This document shows, in pieces, positions 2,519 to 63,396 of a stretch of 64,000 bases of DNA (within the stretch, counting starts at the first letter, position 1; each line of letters begins with the position of its first letter). Both the position numbers and the translations under genes were made by a program. Source of the DNA: Sphyrna mokarran. Lineage: Eukaryota. The stretch lies in the NCBI GenBank assembly GCA_024679065.1, contig JAGIQG010000022.1:24862001-24926000 (forward strand). Reading direction: 5' to 3'. Below the pieces are notes generated by a model. The model ran no database searches, had not been told where the DNA came from, and was given only the letters and a program-made list of their open reading frames with translations.

Positions 2519-41881
<39,363 letters not shown>

Positions 41882-43004
41882 GTTTGTAAGTCCTGAAGAA
41901 AAAAAACAGATTTCATTTCTTTAATTATCTACAAATCCATGTGAAAAATTATAACGTCCAGATGGATTAAGGAGAGTTTCTAATTTTATCAAGTTGTTAT
42001 AAATGAGGTAGTTCCTAATTAAAATGATTTGGCCTATATCCATTTAACATCCACACATTTGATTGCCTAAAGGTTTAAAAATAACTTCTGTAAATACATT
42101 AAATGGCATAATAAAATGATTGCTGCATGAGATGCAATGTGCGTTGATGGCAGTATAGTCTTTAGTCTTGACATTTATTCCAAACCAGTGGCAACATAAA
42201 GAACGATGTGAATTAAACTGGTTCAGATTAAATGTCAATATAGTGACATTCAGTTCATTTCACCCAAATCAGGTTGGCAATCCATCGCACACAAACTGCA
42301 ACTGCAGATCTAGGATCTGCAAAATTTATATTTCCAGCAAAAAAAAATTCTTGACGCATTAAGTTTCTTTCTAGACAAATGCAGAGTATAGTATAAGTTC
42401 TGACTTTCTTTTTATTCAGCCATGAATATGCACGTAACAGATGCTTTAGTAATTTTCTTAACATCTATGCTTGCAATTGCTAACACTTGAAATATGTTTT
42501 AAAATTTTCTTCTCATGTTTTTGAATGTGCAAATTGAAGTTTTGAATAATATTTTAGAAAAAAAGGTAATCAGTACTTTATATGTAACATTTAGATTTTA
42601 AGTTACTACATCTCATTCAGTTGCTTGTATTTTGACATGAACTAAAAGGTTTGACTTCCAAAATAGATTAGGAGTTCTTAAACTTCTCTGACAGTAGTGC
42701 AAAATTCGAGTGTGCTGCACTGTCCCTAACGCTGGCGAAAATATCACACCCAAACAATTCGAAGAAACAGGTGCAATTCTTTTGGTGCCTGGACAACAGA
42801 TCCCTATCCACCAATGTGTCCAAAAAAGGTGAACTAGTCATTCATATGACTGATATTTGTTTTAACATTTTTGAGCAGAATGATTGATCCATTTATTTAC
42901 ACAACATACACTCCAAAGAATTGTTTTTATATATGACATTTTAATATTGTACAGTGGTATCTAAAGCTAATAGATGCCAGCTAGATTATTTTGCCCTGCG
43001 CCTC

Positions 43005-43290
43005 CCAAAGCAGCACTGCTGCCTTACAATGCCAGAGATCCAGGTTCGATCCTGGCTTGGATGATTGTCAGTGTGGAGGATGCACATTCTCTCCATGTCT
43101 GCTATGGTTTCCTCCTGGTGCTCCATTTCTTCACACAAAGATGTATGAATTAGGTAGATTGGCAATGCTAAACTGCCTCTTAGAGTCAGGGGAACTAGCT
43201 GGCGTAAACGTGTGGGGTTACAGGGATAGGGCCTGGGTGGGATTGTGGTTGGTGCAGACTCTGATGGGCCAAATGACCTCCTTCTGCACT
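43005..43290 (+). mobile_element. HE1-like tRNA-derived SINE
   Basis: agcactgctgccttaca...ggttcgatcc B-box...gctaaactgcctcttag...gggccaaatgacctccttctgcactgtaggattc. Confidence 0.8.
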
Positions 43291-43744
43291 GTAGGATTCA
43301 ATTCTGAGCATGTGTATCAAAACCCAAGCTGCACTTACTGAAATGTTAGTTCCGCTTCTTTCTTTACAAACATTGCCTGAATATTTCCAACATTTTCTGT
43401 TATTTCAGATTTCTAACATCTGCAGTATTATTTTATTAACTTACACTGAGGGGAAAATTTCTTTCCATTTTTCAATAAGTAAAGCATTTATACCAGAAAT
43501 CTCACTGCTATCACCTTTACATTGTTGCAAGTTTTTGCATGCTATGCATCAAATAGTAATGTAAAACTACAAATTTTCTAAGAACACAGTATAACCCCAA
43601 GAGTTGAAAATTTTCAATATGTTAGAGGCATTGAAGGTTTTGTGTTGTTATTCTATACCTTCCTAACATTCAGAAGATACAGTAAGGTTTTCAGCCGTAT
43701 CAGGGAGAAGTTTTATAATAAGGACGTGGTTCAATTTCACTTAG

Positions 43745-43945
43745 AATCCTGACATTGTAGAAGGAGACCATTCAGCCCATCGAGTTTGCACCAACATTTA
43801 CCCAGGTTTACCTCATAACCCCGCACATTTACCTCACTAATCCCCCTAATCATGGGGTATTTAGCATTAGCAATTTAGCATGGCCAATCCATTTAACCGC
43901 ACAATTTGGGGCTGTGGATGGAAACTAGGAGCACCCGGAGGAAAA
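43745..43945 (-). mobile_element. HE1-like SINE (partial)
   Basis: ccattcagcccatcgagtttgcacc...aatttagcatggccaatcc...ggagcacccggaggaaa. Confidence 0.75.
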
Positions 43946-43999
43946 AATGTGCAAGTGATGCAAGAAAAAAAAGAGAACAAAAGGGGGTGAGATTAAGGA

Positions 44000-44470
44000 C
44001 TAAACGGCTGCGCCTCTCTCTCTGGCTCCCCCAGAGTCGGCAGTGAGATCCTGGAGCTGCTCGAGGCTCTTTTTGCAGGAACTCCTACAATGCAAAACAA
44101 CTAGGCCGCAACACAAGCCCAGCTAAAAGAAGGGCCACGCTCGCCCTCCATTCACTTCAAACCATCCGTCCCACGGATCCAACTTACAGTATAAACCGCG
44201 ATTGGCCTGCTCAAGCCCACCAGCACGGTGAGAAACCAAACAGCTGCTTATTCCCTCATCCGCCACTAGGCCTCAGGCTCCATTCACTCCACCCGCCCGC
44301 GAGCGAGGCAGCAACGCACGGCACCCGGATGTCCAGGGGCGGGACTTCCGGCGACAAAAGCGCACCTTCCCATTGGCCCACTGTTCCTGATGGACAGCCT
44401 TCCACCCATTCAGAATGCGGCAGCCTCGGCCCCACCAAGTTACGCAGTGCTGAGAGAAAACCCATCGCAT
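44000..44470. promoter_or_regulatory. CpG-rich PRPF8 promoter / non-coding first exon region (possibly bidirectional)
   Basis: The most conspicuous CpG-dense patch I see in an AT-rich window. GC box GGGGCGGGAC at 44336-44345; ETS sites CCGGATGT (~44325) and ACTTCCGG (44344-44351); ATTGG at 44201 and 44372; candidate minus-strand donor GTAAGT at 44182-44187. Confidence 0.75.
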
Positions 44471-44661
44471 TTTTGCCGAAAATCAAGTGTTTTTTACAAG
44501 TGGAGTTCATATTAGATCCGACAGCGTCTGAAATGTTTGAAAAAAGACAAGCCACTGATTCACAGTTCGAGATTTTTTGCCAACCTTTGGTGATAAGCAA
44601 TTCAGCTAAATTTAGTGCATCTTTGTGACTGCTGAAACAAATTGGCATTTTCATTGAATAC

Positions 44662-44966
44662 CCAAGTGCAGAAAGAGGCCATTTGGCCCATCAAGTCTGC
44701 ACCAACTTGCCAACAGAGCATCTTATGCAGTCCTCCCCTAACCCTAATTCCCCTAACTACACATTTTGGGACACTTAAGGGGCAATTTAGCATGGCCAAT
44801 CCAACTAACCTGCGCATCTTTGGACTGTGGGAGGAAACTGGAGCACCTGGGGGAAACACAGGGAGATCGTGCAAGATCTACACACACCGTCACCTAAGAC
44901 TGGAATTGAACCCAGTTCAATTCTTCATGCTGTGAGACAGTAGTGCTAACCATAACACTGCCACCA
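44662..44966 (-). mobile_element. HE1-like SINE
   Basis: ggccatttggcccatcaagtctgcacc...ggggcaatttagcatggccaatcc...ggaattgaaccc...gtgctaacca. Confidence 0.85.
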
Positions 44967-45654
44967 TAACGAAAAAAAACCCAAGTTGCTTCACATGGGT
45001 ACAATCAATGTTTAGTCGAAGAAGGTTGTGTTAGCAGGGTTGACCAAAAGCTTGATGAAGGAGGTGGGTCATTAATATTGGGTCTTGAATAAAAAGAGGT
45101 GAAAAGGTTCAAGGGGAGCATTCCAGAGTGTAGCACATGAATAGCTGAAAGCACAAGCACCTTTGTTGGGTCCAAGGATGGAGCAATGCATAAAAACCCC
45201 AGAATCAAAGGAATTGGAATTCTAGGAAATTTGTTGGACTGGAAGAGGTTACAGAGAATGAAATGGGCAAAGTGAGGATAAGCTTTGTTGAGAACTTTAT
45301 GCATTGAAGGACGCTAATTGGCAAATGGAAGCAGAGTTTTGCATGAGGTGAAGTTTACTGAGACTGAAGAATAAGAGGCTATTCCAGAGAGCCATAACAA
45401 CTCACATGGTACATTTATCTTAGAAAGCTTAATACAACAAAGTTTACACTGGAACAAAGAAGAGGAAAGAATTAGAATTCCTAACTAAACCTTGGCTAAG
45501 GAGGGTCTTCAAAGATGAGTGAGGTGGAGTCATGGAAGGGTAGTAAGGGACAGAAAAGTCTTCAGTTTATGATGGATGGACAATGATAAGCCAGCCAATT
45601 GACCAGTAACATGAAAACAAATAATGCTGGGAATGCTAATTGCTCATGGAGATA

Positions 45655-45952
45655 ACTGGTAGTACAGTGGTTAGCACTGCTGCCTCACAAAGTCAGGAAT
45701 TCGGGTTCAATTCCAACCTCAGATCACTGTCTGTCTGGAGTCCTGTGTGTTCTCCCTGGGTCTGCGTGGGTTTCCTCTGGTGCTCTGGTTTTCCCCATAG
45801 TCCAAAAGTACATGGATTAGGTGAATTGGCCATGTTAAATTGCCCCTTAGTGTCAGGCTAGCGTAAATACATGGGGATAAGCCTGGGGGGGATTATGGTT
45901 GGTGCAGATGTGATAGGTCAAATGGCCTCGTTCTGCACTGTAGGGATTCTAT
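45655..45952 (+). mobile_element. HE1-like SINE
   Basis: cagtggttagcactgctgcctcaca...gggttcaattcc...aaattgccccttagtgtc...ctgcactgtagggattctatg. Confidence 0.85.
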
Positions 45953-46805
45953 GTTGAATTTTTAAAAATCAAGACTACATTTCCACAATGAAGTAATAAG
46001 AATGACAGAAGCATAAAAGTAGATAGTGAGAGACATAACAAACTTTACACAGGTGGAGAAGAGATGCTTTTTGTATTTGGTGTTTCATTAGCTTGCTGGA
46101 GAAATGTAGAGAGGGTCATTCAACTTGGAAGAAGTTCATGGCTGGAATGGGTGCTAAAATTGAAACGAAAAATCCATTTGTCAATGTAGATATATATAAA
46201 TGTTCAAAAATATATAATGTAAGTAAAAAATGTGTAAATATGATGAATGAGCGATATAATATCTTTATCGAAACTTATAGCTCTCAGTTCCATTATTTTC
46301 ATCTTATATTTTAGTAATTAAGCATAATGCAGACTTGAACTTATTGAATCAAGGAATTACCTTAAGGTGATTTATTGTCATCATGTACATATCTACAAAC
46401 ATATTATTAATGTTGCTTGAAACCACTGCCAAGCCTAAACTAAACTGTTCAGTTTGCCAACTGTTATCTGATAACGGGAGTTGTATAGTTAGAAGAAACA
46501 AATATCTAGGTTATTAAATATTCAATTCAAGTTTATTCGAACTTCCAGGAAAATGCAATTGGTTAAGTGGGTAGTCCTGTGTGGTATTGCTTTAACATTA
46601 AAATTATGGTACTTTGATCTGGTGCAAATCCAGAAAGAGACTTGCTTAGAAGAACCTGCTGATACTTACGAAGAATCTGGGGACTTGCAGCACATTTGTT
46701 ATGTTTAACAGCTAATCTGGTTGAGTCTCTCCTCTCACACAGAGCAAAATTCCCTTTGGCATGCATCATTTCTGATCTCCATTAAAAACAGCGACTGTTG
46801 CAAAC

Positions 46806-46972
46806 AGCAACTTGGGTTTTTTTTCGTTATGGTGGCAGTGTTATGGTTAGCACTACTGTCTCACAGCACGAAGAATTGAACTGGGTTCAATTCCAGTCTT
46901 AGGTGACGGTGTGTGTAGATCTTGCACGATCTCCCTGTGTTTCCCCCAGGTGCTCCAGTTTCCTCCCACAGT
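46806..46972 (+). repeat. 167-bp inverted copy of 44824-44990 (SINE head plus its unique flank)
   Basis: Reverse complement matches 44824-44990 with one mismatch seen, including the A8/T8 run and the non-SINE flank cccaagttgct. Confidence 0.93.
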
Positions 46973-47259
46973 TGTTCTGGTTAAAGGACTCATTGCAATG
47001 CAATTGGGCACAAAGTGTCTGAATTGATATTCTTTTTGAAGGGGTCACTCAGACAGATTTACACGGTACTTTCAACAACAAAAGAAAATGAGTTACAAAT
47101 ACCCTCCTGAGAGGAGAGCATCTTTTTTTCCAGCATGTATGATCTCATAGCAACAAAGGAAATTGATCACAGTTTACTGAGAATCCTGTTGAATATCTTA
47201 TGACTACCTAAATAACAGGTGTTATTGTGACGATCCTGCAAGACCTCAGTCACTGCTGA

Positions 47260-47547
47260 ATGGGGAATAGTTGCTCGTGCACCCACACTACTGTAACTCA
47301 AATTCACTTCTTGCACAGTGATGGCTCTCCACCCTTACAAAGAGAATATAAAGACCAGACACAGGTGGAAGTGAAAGCAGGGAGCAAACATGAAGCAGCA
47401 GAAGTAAAAGAACAATATGAAAAATGGAATATGCTTGCTGGAGAAGTCAAAGCACTACTCGACATTCGTTCAAGAGAAGGCAACGTGGAGGAGCTAATGT
47501 ATCAACTGAATAAAACCTTTAAAGCTGACAGCCTGGTCATGACATCG
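47260..47547 (+). CDS. Putative first coding exon of the calpain (96 aa, MGNSCSC N-terminal extension)
   Basis: ATG directly preceded by an in-frame TGA; 288-nt open frame ending at TCG|GTAATC, phase 0 like the next exon. It has no calpain homology itself, so linkage is inferred. Confidence 0.6.
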
Positions 47548-50500
47548 GTAATCAGATTTATGTGTCATATGTATTGCATAGTGCCAAGCACTTTGATAAG
47601 CATGGGTCTGCTGCTTTTGTCAATTTACTTATAATTTGTGCCTGAAAGATTGTACTGAAATCTTCATTAGTAGCTCATTATTTTAATTGCATTATACAAT
47701 TTAGGTGAAAAAAATCTAAAATGTATATTTTAAAAGAAATCGAAGTTAGAGACTAGAATCTAAAATTCCTTGCCATTACAGTGTTGAGAGGGCTGCACCT
47801 TCCAGAGTCCTTAATATTTACAAAACTGTAATGAGATTGGACTGCAGTATTTGCTTCGATCCCATGTTGTGTTAAGAGCATCTATTTAATATTCAGAACA
47901 TCACATTCTTAATAGTATCTTTAGAAAGTGAAATGTAATTGTATATTAATGTTCAGGCTCAACGGAATTCAGATGGAGATGATGCTACTTTTACAATCTG
48001 CTACCTTAGTCATATATCTGAATTCCAGAGTCTTGTGAAAGAATACTTTTATGTCTTTGATTATAATACATAACTAAACAAATGTTTATCTAACATACCA
48101 GGTCCCACTTTATCAGTGCACTGATATTTGTGGAAAGTAGTACTATAATACTCAAAGTATTAAAATGAGGCTAATACTTAGTAATTGGTTCAATATTTTT
48201 CATTATGTAGGTTTGTTTAGCTTGTGAAATGCTACATTTTAGTCCTTTTCTGTCAGACCAATAAGGATGTTGATTTTTGCTTGGCAAATTAAGCGATCAA
48301 ATGTGAATGACAATTTTGTATACAATTAAAAGAAGTCAAAACTGTTTTAACAAAAAAGATGATGTGATTAATGGGCATTTTAGACTCTGACCAATTAAGT
48401 ATTTTATGTAATTAGACGGGGAGAACTGTCTAAATATATCTTTCATCAGTCATACTGCAATTTACAAATAATTGTCATTTCATGCATGTTTGATTTTTAA
48501 TATGCTGGATATGAGCATTAGTATTCATTTTGGATCAGTTCTGTTGCTGAATTCCTTTTTAATTAGATTTTTCTTCCTGCACTACAGAGTTCAAGACAAA
48601 AGTTTGACCATCTAATCCCATATTTTACTCTAAAACTGCCACCAACAGTAGTAGATGTCACACTGCAGACAATACAATCCCACTAAATATAGAAACATAA
48701 GAAATAGATGCAGGAATAAGCCATTCGGTCCTTCAAGCCTGCACCACCATTCAATATGATCATGGCTGATCATATACTTTGGGTATCTCACTCCGGCTTT
48801 CTCTCCATACCCTTTGATCCCTTTAGCTGCAGGGGTCATTCCAGTGCCTTCTTGAACATATCTAATGCATAATAACTTCATAGTTATATTCTCTTTCTGC
48901 GAGAATGGCAGCATGTGCTCAAAATCTAGTAAGTAGGACTTGCACTGGTGAGTTTCTGTTCTTTCCTCTGAGATTTTGAAGATTGGGGCTTGATTGGGAT
49001 GATTGGTGGGTATGGTCATGAGATGGGAGGAAGCTAGGCTCACACCTAATATTCAAGCACAGATCCTGCTTTTTGAGTAAAGAGAGAGCAGTGTCTCTCT
49101 TCTCCTCTTCGAAGTTGGATACTGGAATCAGCCAGAAGATGTTTCTTTCTTGGAAATTCTGCTGTATGAGAGCTGCTGTTTTGAAAATTGTTGTTTGGAT
49201 CTCTATTAAAAAGCTGAAAATCCAGCATTCTTATTTTTGTGCTAATTCACAAGAAGAATTGTATGCCCTGTGACCAAGACATCGCCCAGGCACACCACTA
49301 CCTGAGGTAACCCTTGGAGTATGTAAATCATGATATTAATATTTAAATCCATCCCACTGGCAAAACAGTGCCAGTAACTCTGCACACAGCATGAAACTGG
49401 TCACAAACTTGATTTCTGGCCTTGCACGCAATCCTATCAGTTCGCTGTGCTAATCGACTGGCACAGCAAGCTGGTAAGATTGTAGCCAAAATCAGTGTGA
49501 GTGGAGTCAATTTGTTTTAAACCTCCCCTGGCACTTTCCGTATTGATGTAGAGATGCTGGCGTTGTACTGGGGTAAACTCAGTAAGAGGTCTGACAATAC
49601 CAATTTTAAATCCTTCCAATTTTAAATGCAGACCAGAACACCTCATTCGCCTGACGAAGGCTACAAAGGCCAAAAGCTTGCAACTATCAAATAAATTGGT
49701 TGGATTTAAAATTGGTGTTGTCAGACCTCTTACTGACTTTCCGTATTGGGCAAGCCTCCAGTTGCCTAATAGGGGAGCTTATGTTCAATGTGGCTCATGG
49801 GGAGATCCATTGACGATCCTCCATGGCCCTCTTAACAAACTGCCCACAACTTTTTAGTCCCTGCCACTGGCTTGAGCAGAAAATCCCACCCAATCTTTCA
49901 GATTAATAGCCTTTCAATTGCACAGCGTTGCCTGCTTTTTGTTCTTATTTCAGATTATCAGCGGACACAATATTTTCCTTTTGGTATAGTGGGAGGAAGA
50001 ATGTTGTTTGAATACGTGATCTGTTAAGTCACTAATATTACCAGATATCATTCCTACCTTGTAATATTTAAATGATTCGTATTATTTTAAGTACACAGAA
50101 ATAAGATATTATTCCATTATAACCATCAGACCTATTTCATTTTTATTCAGAACTTTCAGAAAATTATAGAAGAGCTTGAACTGACTAGCAAACTCTGGGA
50201 AGACCCCGACTTTCTCCCTGAACCTTCATCATTAACTTATGAGGACATAGCCCCAGAAGGAATCAAATGGATGCGCATCTTGGTAACTGTGCAATGATTT
50301 CATACTGATCAGCCTTAGATATAGCTTGCTCCTGTTGAAATGAACAACTATCCTAAAATATTCAGGAAGTTTGAGGATAAAATGATTGGGAATATATGCT
50401 GCAGCATGAAAGGTTGTGAAAAAATGTAAAGATAGAAATTTGCTTTGGACAAATATGTGCAGGTTATGTGATCAGCCATGCTAAATTGCCCCTTACTGTC

Positions 50501-53500
50501 AGGGGACTAGCTAGAGTAAATGCATTGGGTTGGGGCAGTGGGGCCTGGGTGGAATTGTGTTTACTGCAGATTGATGGGCCAAATGGCCACCTTCTGCACT
50601 GTTGGGATTCTATGATTCTATAGATTCTATGACAAAAGAGCAAAACAAGCAGTGTCATGTTAGCTGCCTATTATACAACAGCTCCCACACCCACTATATA
50701 GATAGTTCCTTTAATAGTGGAAAATATCAGGAGGTAAATCAGGAAAATCAGGAGGCCCATTGTAGATGAAGATTTATTGCCCATGACTAATTTTGACTCT
50801 GTACTGTCTTACAAATGATTTAAGACATTATTTCCCATGGACAATTTCAATGAGAAATAAGCAGCTCCAGCACAGAAAGCATGACTTGTTATAGTTTTAA
50901 TTTAGTTTCTTAGAGCTGTCAGGGATAAGTGATAGATTGCAATATGATCCGATAAGAGGAAAACCAAAAATGCTGGAACTTCACATTGAGTCAGCAAGTC
51001 TGCAAAAGAGATAGATTAGCATTTCAGGTATGTTAATGATCGTACATTTCAAGAAATATTTCCTTTAATCACTATTCATTGATGTATAAAGCTATCTGCC
51101 TAAAATCTTAAGGCTACCATCCCTTCTCCACAGATGATGGATGATCTGTGACCATTTCCAGCATTTTCTCTTCAAATTCACATATATTTACTAAATGGCT
51201 GTGCTTTCAATGAATTTTCTTAAAATCTGAGCTGATCTGTTTATTTTCTTTTGTAAGCTATGTGTCATGAGGAATTTAGTATTGAGGATAGTGTGCAAAT
51301 TGAATAAACAATTAAAAAGGAAAGAATTTACAGGGCTTATGGGAAAAGGGCAAGGGAATGGCATCAATTAGGTAGTTCCACTAAAGAATTAGGACAGCTG
51401 TGATGGGCCAAATGGCCTCTTTTATGTAGTTTCACTACATGATTCCCTGAAATGTAAGTTGTTGATTAGAGTTGAAATGGTGACTAGGAGAAGAATACTC
51501 CACCTTGTAAATTCTTTATTTCTTTGTTCTTAGGATCTGCATGAAAATGCTTTCTTTATAACAGATGGGGTTAGCAAAAGTGACATTATCCAGGGAGAGC
51601 TGGGAGACTGCTGGTTCTGGGCCTCTGTGGCTACAATAGCCAATTCCAGAAGACTGATTGAGTGGGTTATTCCAACTGGTGAGAACTTATATTTTTAAAA
51701 TTGAGATTTCGAGTTACCATACTGAAGTTTTCTGTTCACAATGTTTAAAACAAAATATAGAGAAGCTTAAGCTTTGCAGATATGTAGATATATAATGAGT
51801 AACTTGACCTGATAAATTATTGCAAAGGGAACCTTTATCGTATGATTCTGCTTGCCATGATGTTAGAATTTTCAATGCTTATGTAACAAAATGCTGTAAT
51901 ATTTTCCTACTTACGTCTCACCCAGAGTACACCGCACTTATATTCAGTATCACTGGCTTCTGATAATGGAACAAATCAAATTTAATTTTCAATACATGGA
52001 ATCTAGGATTCTTACTAATGTTTTGGAGATCACATTCCATGATTCCATCCACATTAACTATGCATACCTATAAACTTTGGGGAGGGTACTAACTCAATAC
52101 TTTTAAAAACAGAGTCACCCTTTGGGATGCAGCTAGAGGCTTTTAGATGGTCTTTGGAATTGAATAAGCTTCACATTCAAATCAATCTTGACATTTAGCT
52201 TATGATGTTTCCTAGGCTAGGTTTCAGCCTTGTATTTCAACTCAAAAAACTATTATATTTTCCAATTGAGGTTCAAATATGAATCTTATAACACTACCTT
52301 TATCTCTGCAGTATTTTTAATACATATTTCAATTCATTTTAAAGCCTGTTTTGAAATAGCACAGATAGGAAATTAATAGTGAAACCCCAAGGGTTGAATG
52401 TTTTGGACTCTGGAACAGACTGGGAGGCAGGAGGGCTGCAATATTGAAGCAGAAGTTATTGGGAGAAGAGACTGATGTTTTCTTGCCATTGTGATATTTT
52501 ATCGGAAGAAAGTCACTATGGTGAATAGTCACCATGTGGCCAATTGAACCATTTAAGTGCAAACTGGCAGCCTTCTGGAAAGACTCTGGAGGGGTAGGGT
52601 GGAGGCTTTTTTTTTGAGCAATCTAGGGCTTACAAGAGGGCTCCCAGGACAATGACTAACCTGACAGCAACAGCATTGCCAATACTTCACGACCCATTCC
52701 CTCCCATCCCCAATCACATGGGCCTGACTGCCTGGTTCAGCTTCCTCCTGTACAGTCTCAACACTCTTTAAGAGTGCCTGACAATTGAGACATCCTTTTC
52801 CTGTAATGTTGCCTCCATCTGATTGGTCCAACAGCTCCCGAGGTGGGTTGCCATCCTTAATTGGTTGGTGGCCCAGTCAACAGTCTGTTCATTGGCTGTC
52901 TCTGGCAAAATGTCAGTATGGGTCCTGCCACCTGCTAAAGTGCAATTGTTTCTCACTTTCAGCTTTGGCAATGGGACTTGCTGGCAATCAGCAATCTGGT
53001 GATATTGCCTTGAAAAGATGATGGTGGATGTTCTTCTTGAATTGCTGTTGTGTTAATGTTGTTAATGGGGAATCCAAGTGTTTGACTCAGCAACAATGAA
53101 ATAATGGCAAAGTTGCTTAGAAAGGATCTAGACGTTAATGGTATTCCCTTTACATGCATACCTTTGTCTTCCTCTGGGGCATGGAGCTAGGAAATGCTGT
53201 TGAAATAAGCTTGCAACGTTACTGCAAAGCTTTTTGTAATGAATGCAAAATACCATTGCAGTGGTGGAGAGAGTTGTGGTAGGAGCACCAATCAAGAATA
53301 CCGTATTCACCTGGACTTTGTTAGTTGCTACTTTTGGTGTTTTCATCATTGATAGGATTTTGCGGTCCTGCCCGCCCAAGACCAAAAATGTTTATCTGAG
53401 GTTAACAGATCTTTCAATCGTTCATCAAATTGTCTGTCCTGTCCCCAGTGAATTTTATGTGGCGGGTGGGGGTGTGTGGTTTGTAATGGAGATGTGAGTG

Positions 53501-56500: not shown

Positions 56501-59500
56501 GAATGGAGCCCTCACCAGGATGATGGATGGATTGGAGCCGAGGTGGACACACTTTATCTTCGTTCTCGGAGACAGCTTTCCAGCAGGGTTATCACCCTGG
56601 CCTGGGATGCAATGTCTTCCAGACAAGGACAAGACAGCAGTATCAGAAGAAGATAAATGATCTTCTTCACTCAGTCAGATTAAGCAAACCCCCACTTGTC
56701 CTCTGGACACCATTGCACACCCTTTGCTCCTCCAACTCCATCTCTCATCCTTGGGAGTTGTCAACACCAGGGCACCACTACCCCTCCCGCAATCACTGTG
56801 GTTCCCCAGTAGCTGCTATGCTTCTCAAATTGCAGCTTCCACTCAAGCTCCATGTTGCCATAACTCATCACCATCTTCAATCTCACGACTCCTGCCCACA
56901 TTCTCCCTATCTGTGTTAATGCAAGACAAACTCAACCACGACAAACATAAGCAGAAGTACGCAGCATGCCTGAGCTCTGAATTCTCACACATTTTGAGAA
57001 GTGAGCCCTCGAGCTGGCCTTGGAGGAGGAAGACTGCTGGTGAAGTGAGGGCAGCAGATAGCTGTGAGAACCCCAAGACACACTGTGATTCCTCAAGCGA
57101 GTAATTAATGACTCCTCCATCTCCCCTGTTTTGCATTGATGTCATTCCCTTCTCTTGCAGCTAACCAGCTGAACAGACCAGATCATCCTCATGCCCCTTG
57201 GACCCACTAGACAAGCAATTGTGAAGGGGACTTCTCTAGTCCCACCATTGAAGATGCATCACAGCTATCACCCACACTTGGCACCAACACAGATACTCGC
57301 ACCTTTGTGGAATCATTAAGTAAACAAACTTCTGGGCCACGCACTGGTGAGGACCTTACAGTTGAAGATCCACAGCAGGTGGAGGCAGAGATGTCCCAGG
57401 AAATTGGCACTCAGAAGACTGTCAGAGCCCAGGACTCTGCTGAGCCTCTAGCTAGTGATGTGTCCCTGGGCCCTATTGCCCCACAGGTGCTGGAGTGCAA
57501 AAGCATCCGAAAGGATGACAGCATCTCTTCACTGACAGCAAGGCCAACTGGAGGAGTCCCACTGCCTTCTGTCAGGGGAGTTGATACCATCATTGCATCA
57601 CGCCAAGACTAACACTGTCAGTGTGGTGTCCATAGTGGAGACCTTGGCATAGCATGAGCACTCGATGCTAGGAGATGTCCATGTCACGGCCTGTCTGACT
57701 GCATAGGCTCCATGGTGCAGGGCTTTGACTGAATGGTGCAGGCACTGTTGAGAATTGACAAGTGTCAGTGCCCAAAGACAGTGGGGCTTCTGGCTCTCAC
57801 TCCAGCTGCCCTCCTCTATTCCATGGAGGAGCACAGGGAGCCCCGGGACCTCAAACAGAAAAGAATTCAAGAAGGCAGTTCACCACCACCTTCTCAAGGG
57901 CATCTAGGAATGAGCAATAAATGCTTTCCCATGAATGAACAAAAAAAAAGGGATTGGCAGGAATACTGCAGCCAGGAGATTCTAGGCATCTTCAGCCCAT
58001 CTGACATTCTGCCTTCCCTCTGAGCAACAGATCTCCAGCCCCTGACACTGAGAAGGGAAAACGTCCATGCTGCCAGAAAGCAGGCCTGGACTCCCCAGAT
58101 CCTGCCAAGGTCATCTCAGGGAGTCCTTGCCATGTGTAGAAGTCAGCAGGCCACTTCAACCTTAACTGTGGATCCTGAGGATACACTTAGATGTAGCGTG
58201 AGAATGAGGAAGATTAAGAAACTGTAGGTACTTAATAGGCACAGGCAAATATGGGCACTAGTGTAGATGGGTCACCATTGTATTGAATGCTTGTCATTCA
58301 AGTTCACTTTGTTCACCCACAGAGCTTCCACTCTTGTCTGCCTCGTCCCTGTGGAGCGTGAGAATGGCAGTGCTATATCCCTCCCACACTGACAAAGGTT
58401 GCAGTAGTGGGGCACTGCTGCTGGCAGCCCTTCCCCATCCCTGAGTCCATCCCCCAATCCCCATCTGTAAAAGGGTGAGCCCTCTTTACCACCCCTGCTT
58501 CCCCCCCATCAAAGCTCAACCCCTTTTATATCTGGCACTGTTCTGTAATGATCACGTGGCTTTAGTCCTGTTATGCAGTTGAAGCATTGTTGCAGAAGTA
58601 AAAGCAACTATTAGGAGCAAATTGCTAAAGGAAATTTTTCAGATAGTAAGGGGAGTGTCTCACAAATATATCCTAATGCTCACAGGCCAGTATATTACTG
58701 GGAAAACTCCGTACTATGGAATCTTTCGCTTCCGATTCTGGCAATTTGGAAAATGGGTGGAAATTCTGGTGGATGATTATTTGCCAACAAGAGATGGACG
58801 ACTTATTTATGCCAGATCAGAAGCTGACAATGAATTCTGGCCTTCGCTTTTTGAAAAGGCCTTTGCAAAGTAAGTATAATCAATTCCTTGTCGGATTTAT
58901 GTTTCACTGTTACATAACATGCCTGTACCAAACCCATTGTGGTGTGGTGATGTGAACAGGTGACATTCTGTTGAATAGAATTCTCTATTTATACTAATAA
59001 CTGGAGAAAATGTTCAACAATTTCATTATTCTGATTAATATCATGATTGATATATCATATATCCACATCTACTTTTCTGTCATCTAGTTGGATTCCTATA
59101 TCCATGCTTACAGTAGAAATTTCCTGTGTGAATATACCATTCTGTAATTAGGAGTTCCTAAGACTAAGGCAGCACTGAGCTGAAGGGTGAAGTTCTATGT
59201 ATCGTAAAGGGAAGTCCTGCTTACAGCAACATCATAGAATTGTAGGATGGTTATAGCACAGAAGGAGCCCATTCAGCCACTCATGGCTATTAGCACGAGG
59301 AACTCAGCTAGTCGCAGTCCTCTGTCTTTTCCCTGAAATCTTGCAATTTCTTTCTTTCTAGGTTCAATTTCCTTTTGAAAGCCATTATTGAATCTGCCTT
59401 CATTGCACTCTATGTCCCAACCACTCCCTGTGTAAAATGATTTTACCTCATTCCATCTTTGATTCTTTTGCCATTCACCTTAATGAATCAATGCCCTTTG

Positions 59501-62500
59501 GTTCTGAAACCTTTTGCCAATGTGAAGAGGTTTTCCCTGTCTACTCTGTCTATATCCCTCGTGATTTTGAAAATTTCTATAAAATCTCCCCCAACTTCTC
59601 TTTTCTTTGGAGACCAATTCAATTTCTCCAATCTATCTTTAAAATTTGAATGACCACTTACTTGGCATGTGACCAAGATATCTGGGAGATAACAATTTGG
59701 AAACAAGGGCCTACAAGTTAATTATAGGGGTGAGTAGACTGTGAGCGTAGCTCTGCTCTCAAGCAAGGTTATAGACTTTAGTTTTAGAACAAGCAGGATG
59801 CATCTCTTTCAAGCAGAATTCAGTTGAAATTTTGTATGCTGTCTACAAAGAATTAAAACCTCTTGTTAATTGTAAGACTCCTGGCAATGAGTTGGACTTC
59901 TAGGAAAAGCCAAGCAGAGAGAGAGAGAGTTTTAGATGCAAAACTTCAAAGTTAAGGAATATTAAAACGAACAAGGTTTTGACCTGAAGTGGTTCTGCTT
60001 AAGAAGCTAGTGATGCCACTGTGAGCTGGAAGTCTCCAACTATGGGACCTTGGAGGAGATTAAATGGGGCAACCTTTCTAATAATAAGCCCAAGAAATCT
60101 CAGTATTCATTTGAAACTTTGAAACAGAACTGAGACCAGGTTTAATCTTCCAATTTCTGATAAGTATCTGACTTGTGTTTTTGAGGTGTAAGTCAAATGA
60201 GTACAGAAGGAAAGTTGAGCTGGGGGAACTCTCCAGTCATATCAGATGTCCGGTCGAAATCTTGCTGGTCTACAGAAAAGGGTATTGGCCAAAAATTTTA
60301 CAATTAGTGGGTTTGATGACCCATTTACTGGCCCCCGCCATTAGTCTGCCTCTTCAGCAGGAAATACACGAGGTGGGCTTTGATACTGGCAATGTCCAGC
60401 CTGGGCCTGGTGTGCTGGACCCTAAGGGCCCAGGGAGCCACACCAGCCCACCAGTTAGCAAATGCCAGAGACATTCTTCTCTCCACACTGAAATAATGGG
60501 TCACCCCAGTACACAACGCAGACATGGGGTGACCCAACTCAAACTCCCTCAGCCCCCTTTCATCCTCAGAACCCCACTCAGTCTCTTCCCCCACAGACCC
60601 CCACTCAGGGCCCTTTCAGGCCATGCACCGTGGTAGTGCCAATAATGCACTGCCCCTTAGCACCCTGGCAATACACTTGACCTAGCACATTGGGTCCCGA
60701 GGTATGTCCAATGCCAGGCTAGGCTGCAAAGGAAGGGTCCCTCAAGCATACTAGATCTGGTAGGCTGGGGGGCAAGGTGTTGATTTCATCCCTCTCCCCT
60801 GAGATTGGAGGGCATGGTTGAACTGCCTTTTCTAGTCCTGGCATTCTGAAGATCACCCCAGGCATAATGATTCCAGGCAGCTTTGTGATTAATAACTTCA
60901 TTCCTGCCTGTCAACTGTGAAACTTTGAAGTAGTCTAGTCAATTTAATCTCCATGCCCCCCTCAACAGTTGGAAGACTTTTAAATTATAGCAGCACTTTA
61001 TTCTGCAGCAGAGATTTCTCTTTCTCTCTGTCAAAAGCTGAGGTGTGAGCAGACTCCTTTGAAATCTTCTGACAGAGAGATGTTAATTTCACTGTGGATA
61101 GGGTGTGGGTGGGGTTCCTTCTCCACAACTTTTCACTCAGCTCCAATGTATTCCCATAGCTTTTATTTGAAATCTCTGAGCCTTCCTAGAAAGCTGAAAC
61201 ATTTGAAAACTTTTGATCTCTTTCAATTTCATAGCACATTCATAGGACATAGCACATGCTATTAATTCACAGCTTAACGGATTTCTACTCAGCCTTCAGT
61301 CATCTTATTTACTTTTCCCTTCATGCTTGAATGCATCTCAAGTACCCCCATTATTCCTAACCACAATGTTTACAAGATAAACCTGATTGACAGCTGTGGT
61401 TTCTTCCAAGGGAATAAGTGATTTCACTTTCTCTTTTGAAGACAAATATCTGTGTTAACAACATTGTCATTTGTATTCACGTTTTTTGTTTTTTTGTGTT
61501 GTAAAATTGTTTTAAACTATTTTAAACCTTATGACTTAATTCTCAATAAATATCTCCAAAATTTTGAATTTGAAAATTCAAAAGAGAAAGAATGTAAATA
61601 AAAATGCTGCAAGTCTTTGCTGAGATAACAACCACCTTTAATTTAGATTAAATAATATAAAATGAAAGCAGAAAATGGTGGAGGAGCTCTGAATAAGTCT
61701 GTTAGCATCTGTGGAGAGAAAAAACACAGTTAATGTTTTGAGTCCATGTCTTTCAAACTGAAGAATTCAGATCTCATGGATGGAATCCCTACACTGCAGA
61801 AGGAGGCAATTCAGACCATTGAGCCTGCACCAACAACAATCCCACACATGCCCTACTCATGTAATGCCTCGCATTTATCATCAATAAGGATCAATATAGT
61901 GTGGCCAATCAACCTAACTCAGACATCTTTGGAATGTAGGAGGAAAGCAGGGCAGTCAGAGAAAACCCACACAGAAATAGGGAGAATGTGCAAGCTCCAT
62001 ACAAACATCACTAAGACTGGAATTGAACCGCATCCTTGGCGCTGTGAGGCAGCCACCATGCCACTCTGTTTCTCTCTCCACAGATGCTGCTGGACTCCCT
62101 GAGAGTTTTTCCAACATTTCCTGTTTTTCACTTTCAGATTTCCAGCATCCACAGTATGTTGCTTTTAACACGTTATTTTGTTTTGCCTCTCCATTGTCTT
62201 CTCAACCATCAAATAGTATTCAACGATTGTTCTGTGCAGTTATTTGCCTACTTCTTTTGCATCCACATTGGATTTTACCTGCAGGTTGCACGGGTCATAT
62301 AAGGCGATTGAAGGAGGGTGGACACTGGATGCTTTGACAGACCTCACTGGCGGTGTTGGTGAGATCTACAGGTTTTCAGAATTTGCAGATAGGTACGAGG
62401 AACTGTACAACCATCTTGCTGCTGCTTCTCGGAAGAATGCTTTGATGGCCTGTGGAACAGGAAAGGTTAGACAGGTGATATTCTGTAGAAGATTCATACG

Positions 62501-63396
62501 AAACGTTAACTCTGTTTCTCTGTCCACAGATGCTGTCAGACCTGCTGAGGTTTTCCACATTTTCTGTTAAAACAAGTTAAAGTTGATCTTCTTCCTAATA
62601 TTGTTAATTATTTTTTGGAGAGGACTGAATGCTGGCCATAATAAGAGTGGACAGGTTTTCAAAGGGATGTAAAATAAGTTACATGGAATTCGTTGCTTAT
62701 TAAATACCTTGCTAGATTATCCATTCCAATGATGTTAGGTGAATTGACCATGTTAAGTTTGCCCTCAATGTACCTGAACAGGTGCCGGAGTATGGTGAGT
62801 ACTTATTCATAGTAAGTTCATTGCAGTGTTAATGTAAGCCTACTTGTGACACTATAATTAAACTTCAGTATACAATGAGAGTGCTGTGAAGAGGCACATT
62901 TTTACTCAGCCAAAATCTAATCTACTGGAACTAAGCAATAATAACACAAAGTTATTGCATTCATCTTCTTATTTAATCCCAACATTAACATTTCCAGCAA
63001 GATTTTGTGTTCTAATAATACATTTCCAAATGCTGCTTGTAATTTAACAAGTACTTCTTGCTGGCAAGGACCCAGCTTGCCATCACGCTTATTGAGAAAG
63101 TGTGGGACTCTTCATCGAGACTTTTCCCTTGTGTCTGCTTGGCCTGGGCTGCCACTGGACAAAGCTCTCTACTGGCAGATTAAACCTGAAATATTGGTGC
63201 ATATTGTAACTGTCAAGACCAAAGCTAAGTATTTGAGCATAACTCCATGAACTATAGCTGAACTCTTGTCATGTTTTTTGCAGCACTTTTGACTTACGAC
63301 TTTCTCCACCTAAATTTTATTCAGGAAGATGAAGGATATGAAAAGCAAGATGGTTTAGTAGCTGGCCATGCCTATAGTGTTACTGCAGTAAGAAAG
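47260..63396 (+). CDS. Calpain-family cysteine protease (CysPc domain), atypical, 5' portion only; gene continues beyond window
   Basis: Exons 47260-47547, 50151-50282, 51534-51678, 58686-58869, 62285-62465 and 63325-63396 chain in phase (0,0,1,2,0,0) with GT-AG introns. Motifs: WEDPDF, QGELGDCW, GIFRFRFWQFGKWVEILVDDYLP, NEFWPSLFEKAFAKLHGSY, DLTGG, GLVAGHAYSVT. Confidence 0.9.
49579..49736. mobile_element. Inverted-repeat element resembling a Penelope-like element terminus
   Basis: 35-bp inverted arms tcagtaagaggtctgacaa(t/c)accaattttaaatcc; internal cctgacgaagg...ccaaaagcttg; related sequence at ~35281-35370. Confidence 0.6.
50151..50282 (+). CDS. Calpain exon: start of CysPc domain
   Basis: ttttattcag|NFQKIIEELELTSKLWEDPDFLPEPSSLTYEDIAPEGIKWMRIL|gtaact. 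Confidence 0.88.
50445..50630 (+). mobile_element. HE1-like SINE 3' half
   Basis: gccatgctaaattgcccctt...gggccaaatggccaccttctgcactgttgggattctatgattctat. Confidence 0.8.
51534..51678 (+). CDS. Calpain exon with catalytic Cys (TGC 51609-51611)
   Basis: DLHENAFFITDGVSKSDIIQGELGDCWFWASVATIANSRRLIEWVIPT G|gtgag. Confidence 0.93.
55535..55845 (+). mobile_element. HE1-like SINE
   Basis: gtggcacagtggttagcattgcttcctcacag...gatgtgcaggttagg...gggctgaatggcctctgcactat. Confidence 0.8.
56300..58260 (+). mobile_element. Decayed PIF/Harbinger-type transposon carrying a Myb/SANT-like gene remnant
   Basis: Frameshifted MTAKKSALHF...DTLYLRSRRQLSSRVITLAWDAM...RTRQQYQKKINDLLHSVR / QDKLNHDKHKQK, a low-complexity tail and a basic end (RCSVRMRKIKKL*); resembles Myb_DNA-bind/MSANTD-type proteins. 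Confidence 0.65.
58686..58869 (+). CDS. Calpain exon
   Basis: QYITGKTPYYGIFRFRFWQFGKWVEILVDDYLPTRDGRLIYARSEADNEFWPSLFEKAFAK|gtaagt. Confidence 0.95.
59232..59640 (-). mobile_element. CR1 3' end fragment
   Basis: RLEKLNWSPKKREVGGDFIEIFKITRDIDRVDRENLFTLAKGFRTKGH. Confidence 0.85.
61785..62062 (-). mobile_element. HE1-like SINE nested inside a palindromic element (~61660-62165)
   Basis: ggaatccctacactgcagaaggaggc...gaattgaacc...gctgtgaggcagc, flanked by the arms agcatctgtggagaga / tctctccacagatgct. Confidence 0.75.
62285..62465 (+). CDS. Calpain exon
   Basis: LHGSYKAIEGGWTLDALTDLTGGVGEIYRFSEFADRYEELYNHLAAASRKNALMACGTGK|gttaga. Confidence 0.93.
63325..63396 (+). CDS. Calpain exon with catalytic His (CAT 63367-63369)
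   Basis: ttttattcag|EDEGYEKQDGLVAGHAYSVTAVRK|gtaaac. Confidence 0.93.

Follow-up and report, generated by a model that had tools for sequence, protein, structure and literature searches.

Gene structure and neighbourhood of the calpain locus

The 64,000-nt stretch of DNA that was analysed (hereafter, the window) contains the first six coding exons of a calpain gene, arranged head to head with a PRPF8-like gene. The complete calpain gene, which we traced through 120 kb of neighbouring genome, has 12 coding exons that encode 588 amino acids in a single open frame, and all its introns are GT-AG; exons 7-12 lie outside the window, on G000:C794. The features are the following:

41229..41468, minus strand: exon (PRO8NT) of the divergently oriented PRPF8-like neighbour
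44100..44500: intergenic stretch rich in CpG (11 and 14 per 200 bp; the rest of 41500-47300 has 0-5)
47257..47259, plus strand: in-frame TGA directly upstream of the calpain start codon
47260..47280, plus strand: predicted acylation signal M-G-N-S-C-S-C (Gly2, Cys5, Ser6, Cys7); conservation reaches residue 17
47260..47547, plus strand: coding exon 1, residues 1-96, N-terminal extension, phase-0 donor
47299..47318, plus strand: internal splice-acceptor-like site; the exon would begin at 47319, in phase 2
50151..50282, plus strand: coding exon 2, residues 97-140, start of CysPc
51534..51678, plus strand: coding exon 3, catalytic Cys166 and Ca-site Asp157
58686..58869, plus strand: coding exon 4, CysPc, Glu238
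62285..62465, plus strand: coding exon 5, CysPc
63325..63396, plus strand: coding exon 6, catalytic His325
G000:C794:24929901-24929995: coding exon 7, Asn349
G000:C794:24937749-24937826: coding exon 8
G000:C794:24937991-24938076: coding exon 9, GPDF loop
G000:C794:24939731-24939856: coding exon 10
G000:C794:24943728-24943861: coding exon 11
G000:C794:24944719-24944964: coding exon 12, stop

Sequence inspection places the ATG at 47260 immediately 3' of the in-frame TGA, and the frame opened there starts with MGNSCSC and runs for 96 codons up to the phase-0 GT donor that follows 47547, which is compatible with the phase-0 acceptor AG before 50151. The first-pass annotation had proposed this exon and this junction as the N-terminus of a calpain; its coordinates are correct, the join continues the 12-exon frame, and the reading frame, the GT-AG introns and the orthologues all point to 47260-47547 as the exon that opens the coding region of an intact 588-aa calpain. 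We infer that the ATG at 47260 serves as the start codon. A sub-threshold Pfam match of exon 1 to YkuI_C was rejected. Contigs from three DNA runs, representing at most two samples, cross introns; they thus behave as DNA from related animals, about 93% alike, and are uninformative on expression. Among the differences listed for these runs, which leave 470 rows aside, none falls in 47260-47315, and this carries no weight as evidence. The same runs show extreme depth over high-copy interspersed repeats, which are found in introns and upstream of the gene (46762-47123, 48572-48933, 49477-49838 and 50382-50743).

From its base composition, the CpG-rich stretch at 44100..44500 is a candidate promoter, possibly shared by the PRPF8-like gene and the calpain. 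On the other side, around 6 kb past the calpain stop, a motif scan found a TLC-domain (TLCD-like) exon on the minus strand (L004:4738-5106), tail to tail with the calpain; a genome profile search with PF03798 gave no match at this neighbouring TLC gene. A further TLC-gene exon appears near G000:C794:24989258. In humans, PRPF8 presumably adjoins TLCD2 with no calpain between them.

The deduced protein consists of CysPc plus one CBSW domain, with PEF and C2 absent. PF00648 (CysPc) matched on five of the window exons, and with an E value of 1.7e-100 on the skate orthologue; PF00648 and PF01067 were the only domains of the orthologues. The stop codon in exon 12 falls directly after CBSW, at the same end point as in the orthologues, and in Pfam comparisons no classical-calpain PEF domain follows CBSW in either the shark gene or its orthologues. 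Likewise, the C-terminal C2 domain of TRA-type calpains was not detected in the 12-exon gene or in the skate orthologue, and the two CBSW domains that are the hallmark of CAPN10/Atypical calpains were not found, there being a single PF01067 stretch.

The catalytic triad (C166/H325/N349) is intact, which bears out the structural part of an earlier suggestion that the enzyme is catalytically competent; activity itself is a prediction from these residues. Alignment to calpain-1 also identified the acidic residues of the two non-EF Ca sites (D157, E238, E358, D365, D388 and E390), whose positions we take to be those of the ligands in calpain-1 structures. Across the 53 aligned rows of the GPDF family described below, the triad and five Ca-site positions are conserved in 49-53, the misses being mostly gaps, and we infer that proteolysis by the shark calpain would depend on Ca2+. 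A fold predicted for the skate orthologue from 120 sequences corresponds to CysPc-CBSW (pLDDT 80.9), and its best Foldseek match is m-calpain 3bow_A (E 3.5e-49); a prediction from 12 sequences was unusable (pLDDT 28.5). Residues 1-87 and the GPDF loop (408-415) have pLDDT <50 in the skate model, which is therefore uninformative on Ca2+ binding by the loop.

Orthologues, the N-terminal signal and the start of the protein

Exon 1 has only one match within its own genome. A protein search with this exon retrieved four matches among 33 candidates, all from elasmobranchs, and comparison with 50%-identity clusters retrieved two proteins, both elasmobranch orthologues. Two broader protein searches gave 234 matches out of 7996 scored and 209 out of 7995, of which the best 120 of each were listed. 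Among these, close orthologues came only from elasmobranchs, sturgeons, paddlefish, bichirs, lungfish and coelacanth, and orthologues from teleosts, gar, amphibians, amniotes or lampreys were not present among the best 120 of the 234 and of the 209 matches. This distribution makes it likely that the gene was lost in teleosts and land vertebrates. The next matches listed were invertebrate calpains without PEF, with about 40-44% identity; crustacean CalpM and the C. elegans clp-type calpains are of this PEF-less kind.

Identity of the shark protein to RefSeq proteins reaches 82% with Heptranchias and 74% with Amblyraja, and ranges from 60 to 82% for the four direct orthologues that were compared with it. 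Orthologues in RefSeq/GenBank from elasmobranchs, Acipenser, Polyodon, Polypterus, Erpetoichthys, Protopterus and Latimeria carry the name 'calpain-A-like'. These entries are direct orthologues of the shark calpain, in a vertebrate clade with 100/100 support; their names are automatic, and several are fragmentary or have other N-termini.

Conservation is very uneven along exon 1. Residues 1-17 are identical to those of the shark protein at 17/17 positions in Chiloscyllium, 15/17 in Amblyraja, 15/17 in Acipenser, 14/17 in Polyodon and 15/17 in Polypterus, whereas for residues 18-96 the respective values drop to 41/79, 28/79, 15/79, 18/79 and 12/79. Since the first 17 residues are near-invariant while the remainder diverges, selection is concentrated on the N-terminal tip. 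By itself, the motif is weak evidence, because MGxxx[S/T] with a Cys at positions 3-10 also occurs in 4 of the 1588 ATG-opened, stop-free 10-codon frames of the window; it is the conservation that lifts the signal above chance. Gly2, Cys5, Ser6 and Cys7 are invariant across the six vertebrate genera whose models start at the motif.

The consensus for N-myristoyltransferase (NMT) is Gly2 with Ser or Thr at position 6, and the enzyme reads about 8-10 N-terminal residues. Both Gly2 and Ser6 are present, and in all six motif-bearing vertebrate genera they are accompanied by Cys5 and Cys7, that is, by Cys within around ten residues of Gly2. The first-pass annotation likened this arrangement to the SH4-type dual-acylation signal: the likeness holds for the Cys near Gly2 but does not extend to a basic patch, since the first 20 residues contain no Lys or Arg in the window protein and 0-1 in five orthologues, so that the polybasic second signal of c-Src type is absent. 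We take the Cys-type second signal of the shark calpain to be like those of Lck, Fyn and G-alpha-i rather than that of c-Src. A helical segment proposed to follow the motif is weakly supported, by helices 50-61 and 68-81 in the skate orthologue model at pLDDT <50. For this conserved N-terminus, the sequence leads us to predict, with reasonable confidence, myristoylation of Gly2 likely followed by palmitoylation of Cys5 and/or Cys7.

Available gene models disagree about where the protein begins. Among vertebrate models from 13 genera, six begin with the motif, three have another leader, one starts at an internal Met (Hemitrygon) and three are fragments that do not cover the region; skate and sturgeon have additional X2 isoforms beginning inside CysPc. 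In the three RefSeq models with divergent leaders (Heptranchias, Pristiophorus and Narcine), unrelated stretches of 5-19 residues replace the motif and are joined at the position of the internal acceptor, equivalent to 47319 in the window. Artefacts of prediction, genuine soluble isoforms or loss in particular lineages might each account for these models. The ATG at 47260 is preceded by T at -3 and, within 130 bases, by three other ATGs; a pyrimidine-rich, acceptor-like site (47114-47134), located 126 bases before the ATG at 47260 and followed by these three, points to a non-coding first exon at a greater distance upstream.

The gene might thus produce two forms, one acylated from the ATG at 47260 and the other soluble, through splicing of an upstream exon into 47319 or a start at Met58; this is compatible with lipid anchoring, and certain lineages may make the soluble form predominantly or exclusively, but we consider it somewhat unlikely. 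That RefSeq models from three orders change leader at exactly the same point speaks for it, and the residue before the junction (Thr, Thr, Ala) fits a phase-2 join, as deduced from protein only. Additionally, the 47319 site has 11 pyrimidines in 17 positions, comparable to the 10-15 seen at several genuine acceptors of this gene. An ATG with a GT donor at 45533-45548 (donor 45542) would yield a Met-Glu-Gly leader splicing in phase to 47319 and echoing that of Heptranchias, a post hoc choice of one among nine candidates that may be chance. Against two forms, the three leaders are mutually unrelated and have no convincing upstream homologue in the window (best ungapped scores 15-18), as would fit gene-prediction artefacts. 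Moreover, in the related-animal DNA the changes 47316 C>A and 47317 A>G move the internal AG by one base and alter the phase, which argues against the internal acceptor as an obligate site.

The GPDF family and the placement of the vertebrate gene

The shark calpain shares with a group of invertebrate proteins a loop, GPDF-D-x-D-G-x-x-D, at the CysPc-CBSW junction; the shark copy is in exon 9. Among 54 distinct family rows, GPDF is present in all 54 by definition, and D, D, G and D are found at positions 5, 7, 8 and 11 in 49, 51, 48 and 45 rows, respectively. D-x-D-x-D-G is a calcium-binding motif that the GPDF loop resembles, and a calcium role for the loop is put forward here as a hypothesis. 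The group includes P0041 (XP_005105403.1), which is the AplTRUNC1 of Hastings et al. 2017 (PMC5650170); it starts with MGCSSS, carries the GPDF loop, has the same architecture of CysPc plus one C2L/CBSW only, and is 40% identical to the shark protein. In its available text, that study groups AplTRUNC1 in a 'bilaterian Truncated' family, with weak support and without naming a member from vertebrates, its vertebrate sampling comprising human, Xenopus, zebrafish and Fugu (CAPN17 only).

We compared N-termini starting from 219 proteins of at least 300 aa, 74 with GPDF at the CysPc-CBSW junction, 139 without it and six unassignable, which were dropped. Selecting sequences with a Met start and a catalytic motif preceded by 110 residues or more left 53 family members and 123 other calpains, or 38 and 83 after collapsing identical first octamers. 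MGxxx[S/T] opens 32 of the 38 family N-termini and one of the 83 others, the rows being kin and not independent trials; the predicted acylation signal is therefore a family-wide trait and not an oddity of the shark. Two of the six family exceptions have the motif a few residues inward, and a third has MG plus Cys. The 21 family rows left out by the selection include fragments, and spider and starfish proteins with the catalytic motif spelled ADCW, which start with MGSGCS and MGCGAS. The sole exception among the 83 non-family rows is P0072, an EF-hand-bearing ostracod calpain that starts MG-x-x-x-S-C. A separate PEF-less clade (P0047, P0057, P0062, P0066, P0069 and P0120), nested in arthropod classical calpains, has neither the MG motif nor the GPDF loop, so PEF loss occurred more than once.

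A Cys at positions 3-10 is present in 22 of the 32 motif-bearing family members and absent in ten, and double acylation is therefore not family-wide. These ten are among the arguments for a protein that would be only myristoylated, with the Cys and the invariant H-T-T-V-T-Q-I-H kept for some other use, for instance in partner or metal binding. Conservation reaching residue 17, beyond the stretch read by NMT, points the same way, and S-acylation sites are poorly predictable according to the accessible part of bioRxiv 10.1101/2022.01.25.477766. We nevertheless regard this as improbable, because no basic patch is available as second signal, most motif-bearing members retain the Cys, and a Cys just after a myristoylated Gly is the usual context for palmitoylation, as stated in the same part of that preprint.

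Phylogenetic trees were obtained with FastTree (78 rows), with IQ-TREE from 45 of those rows, the other 33 being dropped for redundancy or gaps, and from 35 rows and 438 columns after removal of the GPDF loop. The vertebrate clade stays outside the classical and TRA-type calpains. In the tree from 35 rows, it joins tunicate and amphioxus members with UFBoot/SH-aLRT of 88/86, and in all four trees the grouping with AplTRUNC1 and the amphioxus, sea urchin and chelicerate members falls on one side of a branch. Support for the branch of the Truncated family was 0.888 in FastTree and 85.4/57 (SH-aLRT/UFBoot) in the 45-row IQ-TREE. For 18 family rows, UFBoot/SH-aLRT was 37/90 with two long outgroups and 100/99 without them. 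Outgroup rows from the shark's own genome fill less than half of the alignment columns, and their CAPN labels (CAPN10-like, TRA-type) are our working assignments. Monophyly of the family is weak once CAPN10-like and CAPN15-like rows are included, and so is the support for a rooted clade.

Approximately unbiased (AU) tests under LG+G4, on groups named after earlier trees had been inspected, rejected the union of the vertebrate clade with vertebrate classical calpains (p 2.3e-5), with all classical calpains (p 0.0012) and with TRA-type calpains, represented by three own-genome loci (p 0.02). These three TRA-type (CAPN5/6-like) loci, L014-L018 on contigs C2, C960 and C993, all keep the Cys at the catalytic position; human CAPN6 is without it. 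Union with the CAPN10-like row, a grouping absent from the best tree, gave p 0.112. Together with the long stem of the vertebrate clade (0.78) and the weak joining of CAPN10 to the Truncated family in the available text of Hastings 2017 (bootstrap 36; PMC5650170), this value leaves some room for a vertebrate gene that is a CAPN10 relative or a separate lineage, not an orthologue of the Truncated calpains, and that gained or kept the motif independently. We judge this very improbable, given the tunicate and amphioxus affinity, the split of the 18 GPDF rows from classical and TRA rows when the two long outgroups are removed, a distinct CAPN10-like locus in the same genome, and the sharing of the GPDF loop (which is outside the tree data), of domain content and of N-terminal signal.

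The shark gene is best read, from these comparisons, as the vertebrate branch of the invertebrate 'Truncated' calpain family, and the idea of an isolated vertebrate novelty falls; orthologues are already annotated as 'calpain-A-like'. Finally, that the MG motif is a chance intronic or untranslated sequence, in a protein never acylated, is hardly credible: four such motifs do arise by chance in the window and the start context is weak, but 14-17 of the 17 residues are identical from sharks to ray-finned fishes while neighbouring coding residues diverge, and RefSeq models of five named genera begin here or at the matching GenBank-model site.

A probable lipid-anchored calpain and its relation to known systems

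Our preferred explanation, which we think probable on sequence grounds, is a lipid-anchored calpain of Truncated type whose dual-acylated N-terminus would hold the protease on membranes. After removal of Met1, NMT would add myristate to Gly2, and this weak anchor would bring the protein to DHHC acyltransferases. Reversible S-acylation of Cys5 and/or Cys7 would then trap the protein on the membrane; since there is no basic patch, the second anchor would most simply be palmitate on Cys5 or Cys7. A probably flexible linker of about 80 residues, mostly of low confidence in the model, would tether the protease, and the active site would be assembled by Ca2+ bound to CysPc in its two conserved non-EF sites, so that local calcium would switch the protease on, possibly assisted by the acidic GPDF-D-x-D-G-x-x-D loop. 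The lipids would thus take the role played by the C2 domain in CAPN5 and by Ca2+-driven membrane translocation in classical calpains.

Classical calpains (CAPN1/2/3/8/9/11-14/17) have the same CysPc-CBSW fold, triad and Ca sites as the shark calpain but they possess PEF, which the shark protein does not, and grouping with them was rejected. CAPN5 and CAPN6 resemble it in being without PEF, in their similar CysPc exon boundaries and in a lipid-linked association with membranes, predicted in the shark. As reported in the available part of bioRxiv 10.1101/2022.01.25.477766, both are S-acylated, S-acylation of CAPN5 favours membrane binding and activity, and the route of S-acylation is described as kinetic trapping. 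A lipid-anchored vertebrate calpain is not, consequently, new as such; what differs is the N-terminal form, because CAPN5 and CAPN6 have a C-terminal C2 and their S-acylation is C2-dependent and not myristoyl-dependent, according to the same portion of that preprint.

Trypanosomatid CAP5.5 is palmitoylated and is not known to be active. As given in the accessible parts of the sources, its Gly2 is myristoylated (PMC4974623), and the calpain of Plasmodium falciparum carries myristate on Gly2 and palmitate on Cys3/Cys22 (PMC2746569). Gly2 myristoylation is thus common to both protist proteins and is predicted in the shark, with architectures that differ in the protists. Along with the S-acylation of CAPN5, these two proteins are precedents for the mechanism proposed here. 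The strings 'myristo' and 'palmit' have no occurrence in the main text of Hastings 2017 (PMC5650170), as far as that text was available, and 'myristo' is absent from the texts of PMC10762896, PMC13413365 and PMC4631099. In a literature search that covered subscription journals thinly, we found nothing on vertebrate Truncated-type members or their acyl anchor. The N-terminal lipid-anchor motif, as a putative shared feature of the Truncated family, has apparently gone unnoticed.

In a broader scenario, which we offer tentatively and hold to be conceivable rather than probable, these proteins would form an overlooked, bilaterian-ancestral class of calpains, anchored by fatty acids and sensing calcium through a D-x-D-x-D-G linker loop that replaces PEF or C2. 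It would have come down to jawed vertebrates in an interval flanked by PRPF8 and a TLC-domain gene, tetrapods and teleosts would have lost it separately, and some fishes would switch between anchored and soluble forms through alternative first exons.

The shark calpain is a variant of a well-known protease family with a well-known lipid signal. The inventory of vertebrate calpains rests, however, on mammals and teleosts, and the Truncated-type lineage is missing from the available text of two surveys, that of Macqueen and Wilcox 2014 (PMC4043111), which is confined to classical calpains, and that of Hastings 2017 (PMC5650170). The latter, in the part available, leaves open how truncated calpains act and are regulated, a question on which the acylation signal and the acidic loop provide two handles, also in Aplysia, whose calpains act in synaptic plasticity. 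If our reading is true, it would add a further membrane route for animal calpains, together with a gene that the human lineage has probably lost.
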